Positions 4,286 through 57,726 of a DNA stretch of 64,000 nt are shown here, piece after piece. This DNA comes from a virus. The notes below the pieces were generated by a model that saw nothing but the letters and a program-made list of their open reading frames with translations, ran no database searches and was not told where the DNA came from. Position 1 is the first letter of the stretch. Each line of letters begins with the position of its first letter. The stretch is taken from IMG/VR virus record IMGVR_UViG_3300025834_000005. One strand, 5' to 3'. The position numbers and the translations under genes were made by a program.

Positions 4286-4298
4286 TAATATAAATACT
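4286..4298 (-). promoter_or_regulatory. phage-specific upstream motif (sense AGTATTTATATTA)
   Basis: 22 nt upstream of ATG 4264. Member of the 19-copy motif family. Confidence 0.55.
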
Positions 4299-26315: not shown

Positions 26316-26326
26316 AGTATTTATAT
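26316..26326 (+). promoter_or_regulatory. phage-specific upstream motif (AGTATTTATAT)
   Basis: 23 nt upstream of ATG 26349. Heads the first fibre operon. Confidence 0.55.
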
Positions 26327-46804: not shown

Positions 46805-46849
46805 AATAACGAATAATTAAACTTTTTTTAAAAAAATTACTATTTATAG

Positions 46850-46879
46850 TTGCAGGTTACAAAATAATGATTACTTTTG
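46850..46879 (+). promoter_or_regulatory. Bacteroidota sigma-A-type promoter of leader unit 1
   Basis: ACTATTTATAgTTGca-N19-TActTTTG. Conserved with units 2 and 3. Confidence 0.65.
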
Positions 46880-46907
46880 TACCGAAATAAAAAAATAATT
46901 AGAAACA

Positions 46908-46979
46908 ATGAGAACAATTTTTAACATAGTACCGCAACATCAACCACAACAATTGAAATCTTTTCAATCGAATGGCTGA
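46908..46979 (+). CDS. leader peptide 1 (MRTIFNIVPQHQPQQLKSFQSNG)
   Basis: Conserved context AGAAAcaATGAGA. The run Pro-Gln-His-Gln-Pro-Gln-Gln matches the downstream tRNA-Pro/His/Gln genes. Confidence 0.6.
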   Translation: MRTIFNIVPQHQPQQLKSFQSNG

Positions 46980-47008
46980 ACTATGTAAAAAATAAGCATA
47001 CATAATGA

Positions 47009-47042
47009 TCCCCTTTAATTGAAAGATTAAAGGGGATTTTTT
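47009..47042 (+). terminator. intrinsic terminator (attenuator 1)
   Basis: 11-bp stem tcccctttaat/attaaagggga plus T6. Lies 30 nt after the leader stop and 3 nt before the first tRNA-like gene. Confidence 0.8.
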
Positions 47043-47044
47043 AT

Positions 47045-47131
47045 ATAGGCGTAGACCTGTAGTTGGTAGCAGTCCTGATTTGGGATCAGGCGTAGTAAAA
47101 TACCTCGTGAGTTCGAGCCTCACCGCTTATA
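47045..47131 (+). tRNA. atypical tRNA-like gene, anticodon UGG (Pro codons), with Leu-like D-arm and 16-nt variable region
   Basis: Acceptor ataggcg/cgcttat. Anticodon arm cctga-tttggga-tcagg. T-arm gtgag-ttcgagc-ctcac. No nucleotide left for position 26. Confidence 0.5.
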
Positions 47132-47142
47132 CAAATTTTTAA

Positions 47143-47667
47143 ATGATTTATATGGAAAAAATTAATAATATTATGATTGTCGCTGTTAATAAAGGATATT
47201 ACGCCAATGAAAATGGTGATATATTCTCAGTGAAGAAAAAGTTAATATTAGGAAAGTCAAAAAATGGTTATCTTCGTTTTTCGATTAGATGCAATGGATA
47301 TAGAGAGGTTGTCTTCGTTCACAAATTTGTAGCATATTTAAAGTATGGCGACAAGATGTTTGAAGATAATATTGAGGTTAGGCATTTTAATGGCGATTCA
47401 TCAGATAATTCATTTGAAAATATATTACTTGGGACACACTCAGATAATATGCAAGATATTTCAAAAATAGTGCGGATAACAAAAGCCTTAATAGCATCAA
47501 AAAAAGTAAGGGCTTTTGATGACGACACTGTTAATGAAATATTAAATGATAGAAAATTTGGAATGACATATAAAGACCTTTGCGCTAAATATGATACGAG
47601 TAAGTCAACGTTGAGTTACTTTTTCAATCATGCATATTATAGTGGTCTCAGAGAATTGAAAGAGTGA
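47143..47667 (+). CDS. HNH homing endonuclease
   Basis: VRHFNGDSSDNSFENILLGTHSDN (HNH_3-type) plus C-terminal helix-turn-helix. Inserted between tRNA genes. Confidence 0.8.
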   Translation: MIYMEKINNIMIVAVNKGYYANENGDIFSVKKKLILGKSKNGYLRFSIRCNGYREVVFVHKFVAYLKYGDKMFEDNIEVRHFNGDSSDNSFENILLGTHSDNMQDISKIVRITKALIASKKVRAFDDDTVNEILNDRKFGMTYKDLCAKYDTSKSTLSYFFNHAYYSGLRELKE

Positions 47668-47967: not shown

Positions 47968-48732
47968 ATGTATTACGTTGTACAGAAGAATGTTTTTAGA
48001 GAAGAAAATTACGATAATTTGATTATCGCTTTGAATCGGTTAGAGTTGCCTTATGAAATCGTTGATGTGCTACCATTCGTAGACACCTTCGAATTCAAGA
48101 CAACCAGAAAGGATGTATTTCCTTTTGGTGCTGTGAAAATGTCGAGAATTGCCAAAGAATTGGACTGGAATCCAGGCTCTCAATTGTGTGACAATCATGA
48201 TTATAACGTATATAGTAAGTATTATAAGGAGAACTTACTTAATTACGATTCAAAGATCATTAAATTCGGTGATGACTTCTTTCAAACAGAAAGGTTCTTT
48301 GCAAGACCAACATTAGATACGAAAGTGTTTACAGGTAAAGTATTCGACATGGGCGAGTGGATTGAATTCAGAGATAATTCCTTTGCCAATGGACATAGCA
48401 CTTTACTGAACGCCGATACAGAAATTCAGATTTCTTCTGTTAAGAACATTCAGAACGAAATAAGATTCTGGATTGTGAAGGGCGAAATCGCCACAGCAAG
48501 TCAGTATTCTCTGGGTGGAAGATTCTGTGTGAATGCAAACGTTGATCAATCGGCATATGACTTTGTAAACAGAATGATAAAGATATTCGAATTAAACGAC
48601 ACCTTTATCATGGATGCATGCCTTGTTAATGGCGAATACAAAATAGTTGAATGCGGTTGCACTAATAGTGCTGGCTTCTACAGAGCAGACATGCAAAAAC
48701 TGCTTATGAAATTGGAAGACGCTTTCAATTAA
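47968..48732 (+). CDS. ATP-grasp-like protein (tentative)
   Basis: 254 aa. FARPTLDTKVFTGKVF, EIRFWIVKGEI, ECGCTNSAGFY resemble phage R2K-type ATP-grasp proteins. From memory only. Confidence 0.45.
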   Translation: MYYVVQKNVFREENYDNLIIALNRLELPYEIVDVLPFVDTFEFKTTRKDVFPFGAVKMSRIAKELDWNPGSQLCDNHDYNVYSKYYKENLLNYDSKIIKFGDDFFQTERFFARPTLDTKVFTGKVFDMGEWIEFRDNSFANGHSTLLNADTEIQISSVKNIQNEIRFWIVKGEIATASQYSLGGRFCVNANVDQSAYDFVNRMIKIFELNDTFIMDACLVNGEYKIVECGCTNSAGFYRADMQKLLMKLEDAFN

Positions 48733-49152: not shown

Positions 49153-49540
49153 CCTATTCCTTGATGATTTTAGATCGCCAGAGGACGCTTTCTATTACAT
49201 GCGCAATAGCGATTATTTGAAACTTGAATGGGTAATCGTTCGAAGTTATAATGAGTTTGTGAGCTATATCGAGAAGAATGGTATGCCAGCTACGATTAGC
49301 TTCGACCATGATCTTGCCGATATTCATTATGAACAACAAACAAATATCAACTATGATAATGCTGACGATGATGAGAAGACTGGATATCATTGCGCTAAAT
49401 GGCTTATCGATTACACAATGGATAACGATGTTGAATTACCAGCATATATGTTGATACATTCAATGAATACAGTTGGTAGCCGAAACATTAAATCATTGTT
49501 TGAAAACTACAAGCATTTTGTAAAAAAAGGAGCATCATAA
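49139..49540 (+). CDS. receiver-like domain protein (possibly the cyclic-phosphate-processing REC family)
   Basis: NLFLDDFRSP...ISFDHDLA...TGYHCAKWL...HSMNTVGSRNI pattern. Recalled from memory, unverified. Confidence 0.45.
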   Translation: MGNYNLFLDDFRSPEDAFYYMRNSDYLKLEWVIVRSYNEFVSYIEKNGMPATISFDHDLADIHYEQQTNINYDNADDDEKTGYHCAKWLIDYTMDNDVELPAYMLIHSMNTVGSRNIKSLFENYKHFVKKGAS

Positions 49541-49556
49541 TGATACTCCTTTTTTG
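49522..49556 (+). terminator. intrinsic terminator
   Basis: aaggag.atca-taa-tgat.ctcctt hairpin plus T6. Confidence 0.65.
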
Positions 49557-49563
49557 TTTATAT

Positions 49564-49577
49564 TAGTATTTATTATA
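49564..49577 (+). promoter_or_regulatory. phage-specific upstream motif (TAGTATTTATTATA)
   Basis: 12 nt upstream of ATG 49589. Confidence 0.5.
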
Positions 49578-49588
49578 AATTTGATATT

Positions 49589-50587
49589 ATGAGTGATAAG
49601 TATAGCAAAAATAGGCTCTTCGAAATGATGGGCAGGGTGGATAATAATTTCAATGAGGAGTCAACAGCCTCTGATGGTGGCTATCATAGTAAGCATGTAA
49701 ATAATCCACAATCAGCTGGAAAAGAAATACAGAATTGGCTAAATGGCATAGGTCAGGAAAAAACAACGCAAATATATTATAGAATGGCTGACGAATTTAG
49801 AGACATAGTAATTGATGACTCTGATCTATCATATATGCGTTCAGAATCGCCTGATGATTTGGATTATGGCTTTGTTGAAGCATTGGCATGTTATAAGCAT
49901 GACTATAATGAGGATAGTCCTTATATGTACTTCGTTAATTTCTTACTAAGCACTAAATATAGATTCAATCCAAAAACCACATTTAGTTATCGTGCAGAAG
50001 ACTTGGATGAGAAAGGTAAAGCTATTTATAATACTCTTTCAAATGGTGATGACCATTATGGTGAATTGTATGAAGATTTGCTTTATGATCAGGCTGAACA
50101 AGATGATAACAATAATGACCGCAACGGTTATGATGAAAGCGTTAAAAAAAGACTCTCAACTATTTTTGAAATTAAAAACATCGAAGCTCAGAGAAATGGT
50201 AAGAAGAAAGTTTTAAACGAAACTAAGCTTTTTGGCATGATTAATAAACTTGAAAGTAAACGCAAGCTCAATGAATGGGGTGATGAAAATGACTCTGATT
50301 ACGAGAATGATTCAAGTAATTATAGTGAACAAGGTGATTATGATGATCACGAGGGCAGTAGCAGCAATTATGGCGCAAATGACCGTGAAGCCGACAATAC
50401 AGATCATATGGATGAGGAATTATCAACAGAAGACCCTCATTTTCAAATAGGGTCTTTGAGACAGAAACTTAACTCTCATTTAGATCAGGTTCAAAGACTG
50501 TTCACTTATCTGGATGAAAAACCTTCAATAGAAGCTGTTAAGGGGTTTGTAGGAAGCGTTCTAAATGGTTGGGAAAAAGAAAAATAA
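49589..50587 (+). CDS. RLFE-leader family protein B (very acidic)
   Basis: N-terminus MSDKYSKNRLFEMMGRVDNNF. 332 aa, D/E/N-rich. Confidence 0.65.
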   Translation: MSDKYSKNRLFEMMGRVDNNFNEESTASDGGYHSKHVNNPQSAGKEIQNWLNGIGQEKTTQIYYRMADEFRDIVIDDSDLSYMRSESPDDLDYGFVEALACYKHDYNEDSPYMYFVNFLLSTKYRFNPKTTFSYRAEDLDEKGKAIYNTLSNGDDHYGELYEDLLYDQAEQDDNNNDRNGYDESVKKRLSTIFEIKNIEAQRNGKKKVLNETKLFGMINKLESKRKLNEWGDENDSDYENDSSNYSEQGDYDDHEGSSSNYGANDREADNTDHMDEELSTEDPHFQIGSLRQKLNSHLDQVQRLFTYLDEKPSIEAVKGFVGSVLNGWEKEK

Positions 50588-50626
50588 AAATATTTTAAAC
50601 TTTTTTGAATTATTTACTATTTATAT

Positions 50627-50656
50627 TTGCAGGTAATAAAAAAAGCATTACCTTTG
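50627..50656 (+). promoter_or_regulatory. Bacteroidota sigma-A-type promoter of leader unit 2
   Basis: ACTATTTATAtTTGca-N19-TAccTTTG. Confidence 0.65.
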
Positions 50657-50709
50657 TACCGAAATTAATATTTACTTCCTTTAGGGAATCAAAAAAAAGA
50701 ATAGAAACG

Positions 50710-50844
50710 ATGAGAAATTTACTTAACATGGCACATTACATAGTCAATTCTAATGGGAATCAAAAGAACATGGAATTATTGGCAGTGGAACAGGTCAACC
50801 TCCTATTATGGGCGGATGAGGATACATTGTGCAATGCTGGTTAA
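50710..50844 (+). CDS. leader peptide 2 (MRNLLNMAHYIVNSNGNQKNMELLAVEQVNLLLWADEDTLCNAG)
   Basis: Conserved AGAAAcgATGAGA context. 21 of 44 codons are Leu/Glu/Ala/Val/Trp/Asp, the identities of the downstream tRNA array. Confidence 0.6.
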   Translation: MRNLLNMAHYIVNSNGNQKNMELLAVEQVNLLLWADEDTLCNAG

Positions 50845-50869
50845 GTAGAGTTTAATAATAATATTAAAT

Positions 50870-50902
50870 AAAACCTCCAGCATACGTGTTGGAGGTTTTT
50901 TG
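50870..50902 (+). terminator. intrinsic terminator (attenuator 2)
   Basis: aacctcca/tggaggtt stem plus T7. 44 nt before tRNA-Asp. Confidence 0.8.
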
Positions 50903-50945
50903 TTTATATGCGTTTTTTGACATGTTGGAATTGAAATTAAAAATT

Positions 50946-51017
50946 GGTGCTGTTGTCCAGTGGTAGGATGACTCGTTGTCTGCGAGAGGGTCGTGGGTTC
51001 GAATCCCATCAGCACCG
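50946..51017 (+). tRNA. tRNA-Asp (GUC), unusual U37
   Basis: Acceptor ggtgctg/cagcacc, G73. Loop ttgtctg. T-arm gtggg-ttcgaat-cccat. Confidence 0.65.
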
Positions 51018-51081
51018 CAAAACGTTTATCGGAAGGTAAACGCAGCAGAGTTTAATAGTAACGTTTTAAAATAACTCTGAT

Positions 51082-51153
51082 AGTTCCGTAGTTTATATTG
51101 GTGTGAATCCACGCAGGGTCGTGGGGTTGCTGGTTCAAATCCAGTCGGGACTG
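51082..51153 (+). tRNA. tRNA-like gene of undetermined identity (6-nt anticodon loop as folded)
   Basis: Acceptor agttccg/cgggact. D-loop has TTGGT. T-arm gctgg-ttcaaat-ccagt. The central arm ccacg-cagggt-cgtgg does not give a canonical loop. Confidence 0.35.
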
Positions 51154-51211
51154 CTTTAGCATTATGAGAGTACTTACCCTTAAGGTATGCCAACCTAAAT
51201 TGCTTTTTTAT

Positions 51212-51286
51212 ACTATCATAGGGGAGTTGGTCGTCCCTGCAAGCCTGTCACGCTTGAGATCACGGGTTCGAATCCCGTTGGTAGTG
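51212..51286 (+). tRNA. tRNA-Asp (GUC)
   Basis: Acceptor actatca/tggtagt, G73. Loop ctgtcac. T-arm acggg-ttcgaat-cccgt. Confidence 0.7.
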
Positions 51287-51318
51287 CGAGTTTCATAAAC
51301 GATATGAAACATTTAGAT

Positions 51319-51393
51319 GCCGCTGTTGACAAATTGGAATAAGTCACCACCCTTTCAAGGTGGATATTGCGAGTTCGAACCTCGTCGGCGGTA
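51319..51393 (+). tRNA. tRNA-Glu (UUC)
   Basis: Acceptor gccgctg/cggcggt. Loop ctttcaa. T-arm gcgag-ttcgaac-ctcgt. Confidence 0.7.
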
Positions 51394-51402
51394 CAAATTT
51401 AT

Positions 51403-51483
51403 GGCTTAGTGGTGGAACGGTATACACAGTAGTTTCAAAAGCTACCGCCACACGGCATGAGAGTTCAAATCTCTCCTGAGTCA
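51403..51483 (+). tRNA. tRNA-Leu (CAA), long variable arm
   Basis: Loop ttcaaaa. Variable arm gcc-acac-ggc. T-arm gagag-ttcaaat-ctctc. Confidence 0.75.
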
Positions 51484-51488
51484 CATAT

Positions 51489-51564
51489 GCTTCTTTCGCT
51501 TAGTTGGTTTTAAAGCGTCTGTTTTACACACAGAAGACCGATGGTTCGAATCCATCAAGAAGTA
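51489..51564 (+). tRNA. tRNA-Val (UAC)
   Basis: Acceptor gcttctt/aagaagt. Loop tttacac. T-arm gatgg-ttcgaat-ccatc. Confidence 0.75.
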
Positions 51565-51573
51565 CAATTACAA

Positions 51574-51660
51574 GGCCTCGTGATGAAATTGGCAGTACAT
51601 AGCAGACTTAAAATCTGCTGCTCTGAGAAGGGCGTGTGGGTTCGAAGCCCATCGAGGTCA
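51574..51660 (+). tRNA. tRNA-Leu (UAA), long variable arm
   Basis: Loop cttaaaa. 17-nt variable region. T-arm gtggg-ttcgaag-cccat. Confidence 0.75.
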
Positions 51661-51670
51661 CAAATTATAT

Positions 51671-51743
51671 GGATCGGTAGACCAACGGTAGAGTCAGTAG
51701 CCTTAGAAACTATTCAGTGAGGGTTCGAATCCCTCTCGATCTA
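51671..51743 (+). tRNA. tRNA with anticodon UAG (Leu codons), Leu-like D-arm but only a 5-nt variable loop
   Basis: D-arm gac-caacggtaga-gtc. Loop cttagaa with a C-A mismatch at the closing pair. T-arm gaggg-ttcgaat-ccctc. Confidence 0.55.
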
Positions 51744-51754
51744 CAATATTTAAT

Positions 51755-51843
51755 GGGGAATTGGTGGAATTTGGTAGACACGCTTGTCTAAGAAGCAAGT
51801 GCGAAATAATAGTAGCGTGTGAGTTCGAGTCTCACATTCCTCA
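51755..51843 (+). tRNA. tRNA-Leu (AAG, A34), long variable arm
   Basis: Loop ctaagaa. 19-nt variable region. T-arm gtgag-ttcgagt-ctcac. Confidence 0.65.
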
Positions 51844-51931
51844 CGCAATCAATGGGAACGCATGTGCTAAGCAGATGGGAATCAGACAGGGAGCATGCCA
51901 AGAATCTTGTACAGGGTTGGAGATTCATTTA
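51844..51931 (+). ncRNA. unassigned structured spacer inside the tRNA array (two hairpins)
   Basis: gcatg(t)..catgc stem (51860-51898) and gaatct-N13-agattc stem (51902-51926). No cloverleaf could be folded. Confidence 0.3.
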
Positions 51932-51932
51932 T

Positions 51933-52006
51933 GGGGTCGTAGCTTAATTGGCTAAAGCACTTGATTTGCACTCAAGAGAGTGAGGGTTCGATGCCCTTCG
52001 ACTCCA
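51933..52006 (+). tRNA. tRNA-Ala (UGC) with G3:U70
   Basis: Acceptor ggggtcg/cgactcc gives G3-U70. Loop tttgcac. T-arm gaggg-ttcgatg-ccctt. Confidence 0.8.
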
Positions 52007-52034
52007 CTGATAATCAGGAGATTATCTATTTCAC

Positions 52035-52107
52035 ACGCATGTACCAGAGCGGCTAATGGCACAGCTTCCAACCCTGATGTTCGTGGGTTCGAGTCCTACC
52101 ATGCGTG
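52035..52107 (+). tRNA. tRNA-Trp (CCA), weak anticodon stem
   Basis: A1-U72 and G73, as in bacterial tRNA-Trp. Loop ttccaac. T-arm gtggg-ttcgagt-cctac. Only 3 Watson-Crick pairs in the anticodon stem. Confidence 0.55.
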
Positions 52108-52111
52108 CCTT

Positions 52112-52156
52112 AAGAATAAATGTTGCAAATTTTTGTAACATTTATTCTTTTTTTTC
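52112..52156 (+). terminator. strong intrinsic terminator ending the tRNA array
   Basis: 13-bp stem aagaataaatgtt/aacatttattctt plus T8. Confidence 0.85.
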
Positions 52157-52176
52157 GTATAATTAAGAAAAACAAT

Positions 52177-52422
52177 ATGCGTGATCATAGGGAAATAATA
52201 AATGAATGCTGTGCTGATGTTAATTGCGAAGGTATAATTGAGATCGCTGAATCAGCAATAGGAAAAGCATTAAAAGAATATAATGATGAAATTGTTGAAA
52301 CGCTTCAGAATGCCTCAAATCTTTACACTGTTATTGACGGCAATTACGTTATCCAGAAAATGGATTTAGATCACATAATTGCAGACTTGGAATACAATAC
52401 TAAATTTAAATTATATGAATGA
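52177..52422 (+). CDS. hypothetical protein
   Basis: ATG (M20 of the track ORF) chosen because the 5' part lies inside the terminator. Confidence 0.5.
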   Translation: MRDHREIINECCADVNCEGIIEIAESAIGKALKEYNDEIVETLQNASNLYTVIDGNYVIQKMDLDHIIADLEYNTKFKLYE

Positions 52423-52588
52423 ACTTTTTAGTTTCCTAAACCAACAAAATGTCGATAGATTGATCGGCTATAGTTTTGTTTTCTTGGTGTCATTATATCT
52501 TATCACTGAATGTGTATCGGTTATTTTCAGATCAGCGTTTGCCGCTATTAGGCGTTCAAGAGTGGAAAAACCAAAAACAGAAAAATAA
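52415..52588 (+). CDS. small membrane protein
   Basis: ATGAATGA overlap with the upstream stop. Hydrophobic helix LIGYSFVFLVSLYLI. Confidence 0.5.
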   Translation: MNELFSFLNQQNVDRLIGYSFVFLVSLYLITECVSVIFRSAFAAIRRSRVEKPKTEK

Positions 52589-52591
52589 TAT

Positions 52592-53527
52592 TTATAAAGA
52601 AAATCCTTTTGATGATGACTTAGTGCCATTTAATACATGATAAATCGATGTTTCGTCTAATTTATGATCTTTACAAAATAGTTTTACACTGGCAAAAGTA
52701 TATTGTAAGTTATCACGATAAAGTATATATTCTTTTCCATGATCTATTTCTATGCGATTTCTCAACTCTGATAGTGAAAAATTTTGTTTATTGAAAGCAG
52801 TCCAACCATTAAGAAACGTCATTTTTAATGTTCTTAAATATAGAGGCATCATCATTTTAGCGTTTAATTTATGTGATTTACAAAATTCAGTGAAATTAAT
52901 TACCCTGTGAAATTTATTATCAGTTAAATTGTAAAAAATATAATTATACCATTTTTTACATAAAGAATATTTTATCTTAACATCTGCATAGTATTTGTCA
53001 TTATTTATAATCGTACTAATTGTTGGCGAGGACAGATTATAATATTTAGAAATTTCACGATAATTTAATCCGTTGTTATATTTATCAAAAATACTAATTA
53101 TATTTAAATCGGTTAAATTTTGCTTGGAATCTGATATTGCTTTTTTATGGCTATCCCTCATTTTTCCTGAATTAACAATACCTGCTAATGGCGTCGAGTT
53201 ATATCCGTTGTTATATGATTCATATTTATCTATATAATATTGTTCCCTAATCTGCGAATTATTTTTTGTTATTTCTTCAAATAGTATGAATTCCCATTTA
53301 CTAAAATCGCATTCGTATTTATTAAATGAGCGTTGTAATTTTTCGGAATGGTGCGAATTAGTCCTTAAATTGTAAATATGTCTCGCAATTCTTATATACA
53401 CGCCAAGTTTATTTATTGTCGATCCTATGTAATATTTGTTAGTAATCATATTTCTAATTCCATAAACATATGGCTTATTTTTATTATCAGCAGTAATACA
53501 TTCAATATTTATATTTCGTATGTTCAT
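52592..53527 (-). CDS. GIY-YIG homing endonuclease
   Basis: VYGIRNMITNKYYIGST (GIY-x10-YIG), R..H, REQYYIDKY, NGYN. C-terminal helix-turn-helix YREISKYYNLSSPTIS. Confidence 0.8.
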   Translation of the reverse strand: MNIRNINIECITADNKNKPYVYGIRNMITNKYYIGSTINKLGVYIRIARHIYNLRTNSHHSEKLQRSFNKYECDFSKWEFILFEEITKNNSQIREQYYIDKYESYNNGYNSTPLAGIVNSGKMRDSHKKAISDSKQNLTDLNIISIFDKYNNGLNYREISKYYNLSSPTISTIINNDKYYADVKIKYSLCKKWYNYIFYNLTDNKFHRVINFTEFCKSHKLNAKMMMPLYLRTLKMTFLNGWTAFNKQNFSLSELRNRIEIDHGKEYILYRDNLQYTFASVKLFCKDHKLDETSIYHVLNGTKSSSKGFSL

Positions 53528-55824: not shown

Positions 55825-55854
55825 TATTTTTTTCAAATTATTTACTATTTATAC

Positions 55855-55885
55855 TTGCACATGTGATTTATTTGAATTACTTTTG
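55855..55885 (+). promoter_or_regulatory. Bacteroidota sigma-A-type promoter of leader unit 3
   Basis: ACTATTTATAcTTGca-N20-TActTTTG. Confidence 0.65.
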
Positions 55886-55913
55886 TGCCAGTTAAAATAA
55901 TTAAAAAATAGAA

Positions 55914-55991
55914 ATGATGAATGCAACACTTAAATACGGAAAGACTACTAAATCTTATAAAAAATATAAGATGAAGAAGGACTGTGTGTAA
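55914..55991 (+). CDS. leader peptide 3 (MMNATLKYGKTTKSYKKYKMKKDCV)
   Basis: Conserved AGAAAtgATGA context. 8 Lys (AAA and AAG) and 3 Tyr (TAC and TAT) codons precede the Lys/Tyr tRNA array. Confidence 0.6.
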   Translation: MMNATLKYGKTTKSYKKYKMKKDCV

Positions 55992-56013
55992 GTGAACTAT
56001 ATATAATATATTC

Positions 56014-56048
56014 AAAAACCCAGTCTTAATTTAAGTCTGGGTTTTTTT
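56014..56048 (+). terminator. intrinsic terminator (attenuator 3)
   Basis: cccagtctt-aattt-aagtctggg plus T7. 15 nt before the first tRNA. Confidence 0.8.
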
Positions 56049-56062
56049 ATGTTAAAAAATTC

Positions 56063-56134
56063 GCTCCTATAGCTTAATGGTAAAGCCTTCGACCTTTAAT
56101 CGAATGACCCCTGAATCAGTATCAGGTGGGAGCA
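56063..56134 (+). tRNA. tRNA-Lys (UUU)-like variant with C33 and a non-canonical T-loop
   Basis: Acceptor gctccta/tgggagc. Loop cctttaa. T-arm cctga-atcagta-tcagg. Confidence 0.55.
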
Positions 56135-56379: not shown

Positions 56380-56473
56380 GGGAGTCTAACGGCAGCAGAC
56401 TGTAAATCTGCCCTGCTTTAAAAAATTGTCGTACTGGAATAGCAGTAGAAAGGTTCGAATCCTTTGGCTCTCA
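56380..56473 (+). tRNA. aberrant tRNA-Tyr (GUA)-like gene: no room for a normal D-arm and a 37-nt variable region
   Basis: Acceptor gggagtc/ggctctc. Anticodon arm gcaga-ctgtaaa-tctgc. T-arm aaagg-ttcgaat-ccttt. Only 8 nt between acceptor and anticodon stem. Confidence 0.4.
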
Positions 56474-56484
56474 CAAATAAATAA

Positions 56485-56566
56485 GGGTAAGATGGTAAAT
56501 TGATTAAATCAGAGGCTTGTAACACCTTCGTCATCGACTATGTAGGTTTGATTCCTACCTTACCCA
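56485..56566 (+). tRNA. tRNA-Tyr (GUA), long variable arm
   Basis: Perfect acceptor gggtaag/cttaccc. Loop ttgtaac. Variable cgtcatcgactat. T-arm gtagg-tttgatt-cctac. Confidence 0.7.
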
Positions 56567-57651: not shown

Positions 57652-57726
57652 GGCTCATTATATTAGCGGTCAGATGGCGGAATTCTAAACTCCGAGACGT
57701 GGGTTCGAGTCCCACACGAGCCACCA
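57652..57726 (+). tRNA. suppressor-type tRNA, anticodon CUA (reads UAG), with genomically encoded CCA
   Basis: Acceptor ggctcat/acgagcc (one A-C mismatch), A73, then cca. D-loop agcggtca. Anticodon arm cggaa-ttctaaa-ctccg. T-arm gtggg-ttcgagt-cccac. Confidence 0.6.

Follow-up and report, generated by a model that had tools for sequence, protein, structure and literature searches.

Unit 2 and its elements

The viral DNA analyzed in this study (IMG/VR record IMGVR_UViG_3300025834_000005; the whole stretch is hereafter called the window) is a 64-kb, AT-rich fragment (~33% GC) of a distant T4-like phage. The window contains three paralogous units, each of which consists of a promoter box, a short open reading frame (ORF), an intrinsic terminator and a tRNA array. 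The second of them, Unit 2, is the subject of this report. A first-pass annotation, made from the letters alone, had claimed that the codons of the Unit 2 leader ORF mirror the tRNAs encoded downstream, and that the array is a discrete regulated operon. Comparison with the sister units and with related phages strongly supported the regulated operon, with a putatively translated leader, codons that mirror the array and a leader 3' end that can pair with the terminator. The features are listed in Table 1. With their promoter boxes included, Unit 1 extends over 46837-47038 and Unit 3 over 55842-56043.

Table 1. Coordinates of the features of Unit 2 and of the two sister units
Feature	Position	Strand	Description
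Candidate promoter of Unit 2, Bacteroidota sigma-A type	50626..50656	+	-33 TTTG at 50626-50629, 19-nt spacer, -7 TACCTTTG at 50649-50656
Leader ORF	50710..50844	+	ATG at 50710, TAA at 50842-50844; 44 sense codons; peptide MRNLLNMAHYIVNSNGNQKNMELLAVEQVNLLLWADEDTLCNAG
In-frame insertion, 42 nt (14 codons), Asn-rich	50725..50766	+	direct repeat AACATGG (7 nt) on both flanks; from alignment
Putative sensor run, codons 22-40 (ELLAVEQVNLLLWADEDTL)	50773..50829	+	15 of 19 codons for amino acids that the array serves
Predicted antiterminator, 5' strand ATGCTGG	50834..50840	+	codons Asn-Ala-Gly; ends 1 nt 5' of the stop codon
Small A/U hairpin	50850..50869	+	within the antiterminator helix; predicted in both folds; putative role
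Attenuator, predicted intrinsic terminator	50870..50901	+	13-pair stem, 4-nt loop, T-tract; hairpin 50870-50899
Predicted antiterminator, 3' strand CCAGCAT	50877..50883	+	top of the terminator 5' arm and first loop base
Conserved 13-nt box TTTGACATGTTGG	50916..50928	+	directly 5' of the first tRNA-Asp; identical in every Unit 2 homologue
tRNA-Asp(GUC)	50946..51018	+	ARAGORN; Rfam 53.5 bits
tRNA-like gene, 6-nt anticodon loop	51082..51154	+	ARAGORN; Rfam tRNA 33 bits
tRNA-Asp(GUC)	51212..51287	+	ARAGORN; Rfam
tRNA-Glu(UUC)	51319..51394	+	ARAGORN; Rfam
tRNA-Leu(CAA)	51403..51484	+	ARAGORN; Rfam
tRNA-Val(UAC)	51489..51565	+	ARAGORN; Rfam
tRNA-Leu(UAA)	51574..51661	+	ARAGORN; Rfam
tRNA-Leu(UAG)	51671..51744	+	ARAGORN; Rfam
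tRNA-Leu(AAG)	51755..51844	+	ARAGORN; Rfam
tRNA-Ala(UGC)	51933..52007	+	ARAGORN; Rfam
Last tRNA	52035..52109	+	ARAGORN Gly(UCC); plausibly Trp(CCA) by homology, anticodon stem weak
Closing terminator of the operon	52112..52156	+	17-pair hairpin 52112-52149, T-run to 52156
Unit 1	46908..47038	+	leader MRTIFNIVPQHQPQQLKSFQSNG 46908-46979; terminator 47007-47038; then Pro, Pro, His, Gln, Gln tRNAs
Unit 3	55917..56043	+	leader MNATLKYGKTTKSYKKYKMKKDCV 55917-55991; terminator 56017-56043; then Lys x3 and Tyr-like tRNAs

The leader ORF begins 54 nt after the candidate promoter box TTTG-N19-TACCTTTG. This box matches exactly the sigma-A consensus of Bacteroidota, which consists of TTTG near -33 and TAnnTTTG near -7 with a spacing of 19-21 nt (PMC7366714, PMC9723704). 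In a four-way alignment of Unit 2 homologues (the window and the relatives L041, L035 and L036), the promoter boxes were identical and the spacer between them was divergent. The longer pattern of TTACTATTTATAnTTGCA followed by ATTACyTTTGTrCC had three matches in the window (46837, 50614 and 55842) against 0.09 expected, and these lie ahead of Units 1, 2 and 3. It would seem reasonable that the segment at 50626-50656 is used as a promoter. Among viral contigs, the promoter pattern TTACTATTTATANTTGCA gave 32 matches, all of them chance matches and none with the downstream box or tRNAs, and the pattern ATTACYTTTGTACCGAAAT gave 0 matches.

The start of the leader is conserved. The context AGAAAC(A/G)ATGA(G/A)AAA is kept among the Unit 2 homologues, and a homologous start, AGAAAyrATGAGAA, is found in all three units of the window. 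The insertions and deletions inside the ORF in the four-way alignment were 42, 3 and 3 nt long, and those outside it had arbitrary lengths. The ORF, which had been left uncalled by the gene caller on an identical public contig, is preceded by an A-rich region without a Shine-Dalgarno sequence; it is presumably translated. A Shine-Dalgarno sequence is absent upstream of all genes in the window, where the DNA is A/T-rich instead, and these facts would fit a Bacteroidota host (PMC9723704). The window proteins include homologues of the gp23-type major capsid, the gp20-type portal, the T4-type large terminase and ribonucleotide reductase. The nearest relatives of the capsid belong to uncultured huge phages and to Flavobacterium and Microcystis phages.

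The leader encodes a peptide of 44 residues, MRNLLN...LLLWADEDTLCNAG. Its codons were recounted and agreed exactly with the first-pass annotation, which had reported Leu codons of all four types together with codons for Glu, Ala, Val, Trp and Asp. The Leu codons are TTA (three), TTG (two), CTT, CTC and CTA, and the other codons of the array type are GAA (two), GAG, GCA (two), GCG, GCT, GTC (two), GTG, TGG and GAT (two), so that 21 of the 44 codons specify one of these six amino acids. Within the sensor run, the core TCCTATTATGGGC (Leu-CTA, Leu-TTA, Trp-TGG, Ala; L-L-W-A) is invariant at the nucleotide level.

The leader also contains eight Asn codons (P=0.03 in this Asn-rich proteome), and a search for a cognate tRNA had been proposed. 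No tRNA-Asn was found in the window. Moreover, five of the eight codons lie inside the 42-nt insertion, which is present in the window only and is absent in L041, L035, L036 and all other family members. Asn was therefore rejected as a sensed amino acid. Without the insertion, the leader has 19 cognate codons out of 29.

ARAGORN found 11 tRNA genes at 50946-52109. That the array decodes Trp, as had been claimed, is plausible but not certain, since ARAGORN assigned the last gene as Gly(UCC). The last tRNA has its acceptor stem and T arm in common with the Trp(CCA) tRNA of L035. In L041, a Trp(CCA) gene is found in the matching position after Ala(UGC), although its sequence aligns more poorly to the last tRNA of the window, and CCA is present within the anticodon loop of the last tRNA in an alternative register. 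These facts make it plausible that the last tRNA is a Trp tRNA. The terminator that had been reported to close the array is indeed present, with a stem of 17 pairs instead of the 13 bp given before.

Two other parts of the array are worth noting. The tRNA-like gene at 51082-51154 has a homologue in L036 (13735-13811) with the same acceptor and T arms and an 8-nt loop (ARAGORN 'gatt'). Conserved in second place in the Asp array, this gene could be a tRNA of the non-decoding or frameshift type. The 88-nt spacer between tRNA-Leu(AAG) and tRNA-Ala (51845-51932) is ~90% conserved with L041, which adds 18 nt. No tRNA or Rfam match was found in this spacer and its fold had z = 0; by analogy with the T4 tRNA cluster, it could be a small stable RNA.

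The segment between the terminator and the first tRNA was searched for a promoter; according to the first-pass annotation, a functional one that explains all transcription of the tRNAs would speak against control by the leader. A scan found a sigma-70-like match, TTGACA-16-AAAAAT, at 50917-50944, overlapping the conserved box TTTGACATGTTGG. This match was not accepted as a promoter of the array, because its -10 element would stop 1 nt 5' of the tRNA, because in the relatives the TTGACA box lies 10 nt from the tRNA without a -10 element, and because the promoters conserved 5' of the leaders belong to the TTTG / TAnnTTTG type of Bacteroidota and are not sigma-70-like. The candidate was thus rejected on its geometry and on the lack of conservation of the -10 element. 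Inspection of this segment of the window by eye revealed no promoter of the Bacteroidota type. As judged from its sequence, the box TTTGACATGTTGG is not recognisable as a promoter, either of the Bacteroidota or of the sigma-70 type. It occurs once per genome, and in the relative L112 it is still found beside the tRNA despite the insertion of ~190 nt after the terminator.

Leader codons and tRNA arrays in sister units and relatives

Leu, Glu, Ala, Val, Trp and Asp together make up 32.5% of the proteins of the phage, and 14 of the 44 leader codons would thus be expected to be cognate. In real genes, 5.6% of 44-codon windows reach 21 cognate codons (binomial P ~0.02-0.03), and ~5% hold all four classes of Leu codon. 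The significance of the codon match rests on the paralogues and orthologues and not on Unit 2 of the window alone.

Relatives were retrieved with an ATP-grasp (R2K) protein as the probe. This gave 7 viral and 68 metagenomic loci, and the probe also found the published huge phages LR756501 (735 kb) and LR756500 (462 kb). The 332-aa protein encoded upstream of Unit 2 found no related loci when used as the probe, and in 50,697 phage records a megablast search with 49500-53500 detected nothing beyond a chance match of 49 nt. Units of leader, terminator and array recur among the relatives, and the leader changes along with the array (Table 2).

Table 2. Leaders, arrays and cognate codons of individual units
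Unit	Leader	Amino acids of the array	Cognate codons	P
W_U1	Table 1	Pro/His/Gln	8/22	7e-5
Window Unit 2	Table 1	Leu/Asp/Glu/Val/Ala/Trp	21/43	0.018
W_U3	Table 1	Lys/Tyr	11/23	2e-5
L041 Unit 2 (closest relative)	MRNLLNIELLAVDQVNLLLWADEDRLCHAG	Asp x2, Val, Leu x4, Ala, Trp	17/29	3e-4
L035 Unit 2	MKKLLDILVAVLMVDVLLWAAEEDDLCEVG	Asp x2, Glu x3, Val x2, Leu x4, Ala x2, Trp	23/29	3e-7
L038	MKNSVNILLQQLQLLQLRSCGRFCIM	Gln x3, Leu x4	10/25	1e-4
L062	MRSSISISTTITSSSITAWIDNALS	Ile, Thr x2, Ser x2	17/24	9e-7
LR756501	...FTPAPAVAFRRGTGTGTGTCVPAGCGFEG...	Arg, Thr, Val, Ala, Gly, Pro	25/41	7e-5
LR756500	MKAISVHIIHIWEHLLEEVNINIM	His, Glu, Val, Trp, Leu	11/23	5e-3

A cross-matrix of leaders against arrays was diagonal. 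When the arrays were permuted among 11 leaders, the observed summed z of 47.4 was reached in 1 of 200,000 permutations, for which the sum was 5.7 +/- 6.8. The cognate fraction was 0.51 in the frame of the ORF and 0.16 and 0.17 in the other two frames. The mirroring of the array by the leader codons is thus supported by the three units of the window, by more than 10 independent units in the relatives and by its frame specificity.

In viral contigs, a scan for the core of the sensor (pattern TCCTATTATGGGCRG) found 23 further units, each of them before an Asp-Glu-Val-Leu-Ala-Trp array. The same pattern gave at least 120 matches in bacterial genomes, and no real leader was present among the matches listed. 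A search of public data with a profile of these leaders gave at least 54 clusters of peptides of 29-45 aa, which had no Pfam domain and no name beyond 'hypothetical protein'. On average, 70% of the residues of these peptides are L, E, A, V, W or D, against a background of 32%. In the middle section of the peptides of the Unit 2 family, the order of the residues varies and the composition is constant.

Not every array has a leader. The scattered tRNAs of L056 and L064, those of L076 and those in other parts of L062 showed no recognisable leader, so that arrays without a leader exist. The order of the array is not the same even between the window and L041, a 95% relative. In two relatives, a tmRNA gene lies 3' of the tRNA arrays (L035 20044-20394 and L036 17518-17873).

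Predicted pairing between the leader end and the terminator

The first-pass annotation had pointed out that ATGCTGG, near the stop codon of the leader, is complementary to CCAGCAT in the terminator. The positions of both strands were verified, and the helix was found to covary in the family. In the window, ATGCTGG is the best RNAduplex partner of the terminator 5' arm (dG -11.2), although a 7-bp complement of this kind is not rare when compared with shuffled sequences (p=0.12). When the segment 50790-50905 was folded, the terminator was the minimum-energy structure (-30.4 kcal/mol, z = -2.7). When the 3' arm of the terminator was omitted, the minimum-energy fold was the ATGCUGG:CCAGCAU helix formed around the small A/U hairpin. 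An equivalent hairpin with a different sequence is present in L041. The terminator would be expected to stop transcription in the host.

We searched the stretch from the leader ATG to the terminator in 11 units for the best partner of the terminator 5' arm. In nine of them, the best partner overlapped the stop codon of the leader or the final 20 nt of the ORF, the exceptions being W_U1 and L058. The combined p value of this position was 4e-11 (Fisher), with several single values of 0.003 or less. The pair ATGCTGG:CCAGCAT is found in the window and in L041. In other lineages, the topology is kept with other pairs, namely AGTCGGGT:ACCCGACT, GGTCGAGA:TCTCGACC, GAATGGGG:CCCCATTC and GGGTGTGGGT:ACCCACACCC. 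The ability of the leader 3' end to pair with the terminator 5' arm is therefore shared by 9 of the 11 units and accompanied by covariation.

Covariation was analyzed with 14 Unit 2 homologues in a MAFFT alignment that was left unfitted. The antiterminator helix was 92% paired with four compensatory pairs, and the terminator helix was 96% paired with five. The covariation score of each helix was reached by none of 500 shuffles, and the scores collapsed when the register was slid. A compensatory change in the terminator is seen between the window and L041, where CCTCC/GGAGG is replaced by CCCCC/GGGGG.

The four short G/C blocks that had been singled out are present (CCTCC at 50799 and 50874, GAGGA at 50818 and GGAGG at 50891), while a conserved helix between CCTCC and GAGGA found no support. 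A hairpin at ~50795-50819 was predicted in both folds, but its CCTC:GAGG pairing is broken in L041, where GAG is GAA. In the family this candidate helix was 89% paired, and its covariation score was reached by 132 of 500 shuffles, which is not significant.

Attenuation model and neighbouring features

On the basis of these results, we consider it very likely that Unit 2 is a ribosome-mediated (leader-peptide) transcription attenuator ahead of a phage tRNA operon. This reading is supported by the paralogues and relatives, which showed array-matched leaders, frame specificity and covarying helices. The phage probably makes the Unit 2 tRNAs only when ribosomes are short of them. Transcription would start from the host-type (Bacteroidota sigma-A) promoter at 50626-50656, and a ribosome would move along the 44-codon leader while RNA polymerase proceeds to the terminator at 50870-50899. 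With fast decoding of the codons at 50773-50829 (Leu, Asp, Glu, Val, Ala and Trp), the ribosome would reach the last codons and the stop codon and would cover ATGCUGG (50834-50840). The terminator would then form, and transcription would halt before the tRNA genes. A shortage of a matching charged tRNA would make the ribosome stall more than ~12 nt upstream and leave ATGCUGG free to pair with CCAGCAU (50877-50883). The terminator would then be blocked, and the polymerase would pass through the 11 tRNA genes to 52112-52149. We infer that tRNA shortage leads to read-through in this way. The tRNA products would relieve the stall, which would amount to negative feedback with a supply proportional to the decoding shortfall. 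The codons just before the antiterminator strand are mostly non-cognate (T-L-C-N in the window and K-L-C-T in the relatives), as would be expected if stalls must fall at least 12 nt upstream for this strand to be freed.

Several facts weigh against this interpretation. Unit 2 taken alone is only marginally significant and close to chance, both in its codon match (P ~0.02-0.06) and in its antiterminator (p=0.12), and Unit 1 of the window has no significant antiterminator (p=0.26). Neither folding nor covariation in the family revealed a convincing 1:2 pause hairpin or anti-antiterminator hairpin, and an untranslated leader is therefore predicted to read through. With -11 kcal/mol against about -16 to -20 kcal/mol, the antiterminator is much less stable than the terminator, and its 7 bp extend over no more than the upper half of the 5' arm. 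Its action must be kinetic. The strictly conserved box at 50916-50928 might offer RNA polymerase a second point of entry, and L062 has a TAnnTTTG-like box between its terminator and tRNA.

It is worth noting that there are other possible interpretations. The ORF might be translated and the hairpin regulatory, with the signal being the general translation status or another mechanism, such as protection by the ribosome from Rho or RNases, and with the codons only tuning speed. Since no anti-antiterminator was found, any failure of leader translation should give read-through, and the composite sensors, with up to six or seven amino acids, resemble a gauge of overall decoding rather than a switch for a single amino acid. 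A general sensor, however, would not need several units in one genome that are specialised for different sets of amino acids, each for its own array, and the covarying antiterminator/terminator pair argues for intrinsic termination. We regard this interpretation as unlikely. If the leader is instead a non-coding RNA that senses tRNA directly, as a T-box or another riboswitch, the ORF would be incidental. The logic, from tRNA status to antiterminator, does resemble that of T-box elements. No match to the T-box or any other Rfam family was found even at E<=1, however, and the frame-specific enrichment, the conserved ATG and the indels in multiples of three all point to a coding sequence. Moreover, one short RNA could not hold specifier positions for six tRNAs. 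A directly sensing RNA is thus very improbable.

It could also be argued that the ORF is an ordinary small phage gene with its own terminator, that the array is transcribed independently, for example from the box TTTGACATGTTGG, and that the codon match is a coincidence. The near-chance codon match of Unit 2 of the window would agree with this, as would the appearance of the Unit 2 peptides, which look like a short hydrophobic helix with an acidic tail, and the conserved box containing TTGACA between the terminator and the tRNA. However, leaders elsewhere that are not hydrophobic (PQHQPQQ, KYGKTTKSYKKYKMKK, SSISISTTITSSS and GTGTGTGT) match their own arrays, as the permutation result (1/200,000) also indicates. 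In the middle part of the Unit 2 peptide it is the order of the residues and not the composition that varies, and covariation links the end of the ORF to the terminator arm. In relatives, the box is found at a distance of 10 nt from the tRNA without a -10 element, and it has no second copy in the genome. An ordinary gene beside an independent array is accordingly a quite unlikely explanation, and we retain attenuation by the leader peptide.

Classical leader-peptide attenuators (trp, his, leu, thr, ilv, pheA and pheM-pheST) are known mainly from Proteobacteria. Like the trpL, hisL, leuL, thrL, ilvL, pheL and pheM (pheST) attenuators, Unit 2 has a promoter-proximal short ORF enriched in regulatory codons and an intrinsic terminator before the regulated genes. 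The predicted readout is likewise the supply of charged tRNA, and the mutually exclusive antiterminator would have its 5' strand masked by the ribosome at the leader end. Unlike them, Unit 2 would regulate tRNA genes and not enzymes, with direct feedback of the product on the sensor. In the phage units this sensor is composite, with two to seven amino acids that mirror the array, whereas the classical one is a run of a single amino acid. Unit 2 is also virus-encoded, lacks a clear 1:2 hairpin and is related neither in sequence nor in Rfam to known leaders. Neither the T-box nor any leader family of Rfam (Leu_leader, His_leader, Thr_leader, Trp_leader and others) matched 50600-50945, whether at the gathering threshold or with E<=1. 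Among the leader types, Rfam gave a single match, that of PyrG_leader to the Unit 1 terminator, which fell below the threshold (31 bits against 65). Leader-peptide attenuation has been reported, by inference, upstream of amino-acid operons in Flavobacterium (PMC9723704).

T-box riboswitches (RF00230) resemble Unit 2 in that tRNA status decides between antiterminator and terminator upstream of translation-related genes. In a T-box, however, one uncharged tRNA is bound directly through a specifier codon and no translation is needed, whereas the phage unit has an ORF that is predicted to be translated and would sense many tRNA species. Known phage tRNA clusters, such as those of T4, T5, KVP40 and huge phages, have generally been described as under the control of ordinary early or middle promoters. 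The window resembles such clusters (PMC7162821) in its clustered tRNAs, its T4-like genome and its interspersed HNH and GIY-YIG endonuclease genes. In the huge-phage paper in which LR756501 and LR756500 were published (Al-Shayeb et al. 2020, PMC7162821), 'leader' and 'attenuat' each have 0 occurrences. No description of leader-peptide attenuation of tRNA genes was found in the full-text literature searched, the coverage of which is incomplete, and an earlier description elsewhere is possible.

The proposed mechanism, ribosome-mediated attenuation, is a known one and would be new here in its target (tRNA genes), its composite sensor and its viral origin. We think it likely that the units form an undescribed class of attenuators, in which composite leader peptides sense decoding capacity, and a viral tRNA array is switched on only by a shortage of its matching tRNAs. 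They would be modules of self-regulating tRNA supply and would be widespread among the T4-like and huge phages of Bacteroidota, the largest published phage genomes among them.

The role of phage tRNAs is debated, with codon-usage compensation, replacement of degraded host tRNAs and evasion of tRNA-cleaving defences as the proposals. If attenuation operates as described, a sensor matched to its array would mean that the phage monitors decoding capacity and delivers tRNAs as they are needed. The shortage could come from a codon-usage mismatch with the host, from phage-induced decay of host tRNAs or from anticodon-nuclease defences of the host, and the unit that is de-attenuated under a given stress would reveal which tRNAs limit the infection. 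Attenuation would be extended to tRNA genes, to viruses, to sensors of multiple amino acids and to Bacteroidota, in which gene-expression signals are poorly known. The rule that leader composition predicts array content could help in annotating odd phage tRNAs; in the present case it favours Trp over Gly for the last gene of Unit 2. The units could also serve as compact, modular, codon-responsive parts in synthetic biology.

The tRNA region of the window, at 46.8-57.8 kb, contains 19 tRNA genes found by ARAGORN and several weaker tRNA-like genes (47051, 56063, 56380 and 56486), with HNH and GIY-YIG homing endonuclease genes interspersed. The homing endonuclease genes at 47143-47667 and 52592-53527 (HNH, GIY-YIG) lie inside or beside the tRNA arrays. 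The genes missed by ARAGORN, at 56063-56134, 47051-47131, 56380-56475 and 56486-56566, are a Lys(UUU)-like gene with C33 in place of U33, a Pro(UGG)-like gene whose extra arm is long, and two Tyr(GUA)-like genes. Their altered anticodon loops may be compared with those of phage tRNAs that escape anticodon nucleases.

The ATP-grasp protein (R2K_3 / RimK-like) is encoded at 47968-48732, between the Pro/His and the Gln tRNAs. The position of this gene is kept in more than 70 loci, that in the 735-kb phage LR756501 among them, and one phage record labels a homologue 'ribosomal protein S6 glutaminyl transferase'. A tRNA of the amber-suppressor type (anticodon CUA; 'Pyl' in ARAGORN) is located at 57652-57726 with a terminator upstream, and others are found at L041 20108, L064 9905, L089 140 and L110 17166. 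The structural genes of the window are open in the standard code, so that any recoding of TAG would occur elsewhere or at a specific stage. Finally, a motif, (A)GTATTTATA, is repeated 20-30 nt 5' of many structural genes (for instance at 26318, 33574 and 39623 on the + strand and at 4296, 18484 and 25429 on the - strand). It is probably the phage's own (late) promoter, unlike the host-type promoter of the tRNA units.

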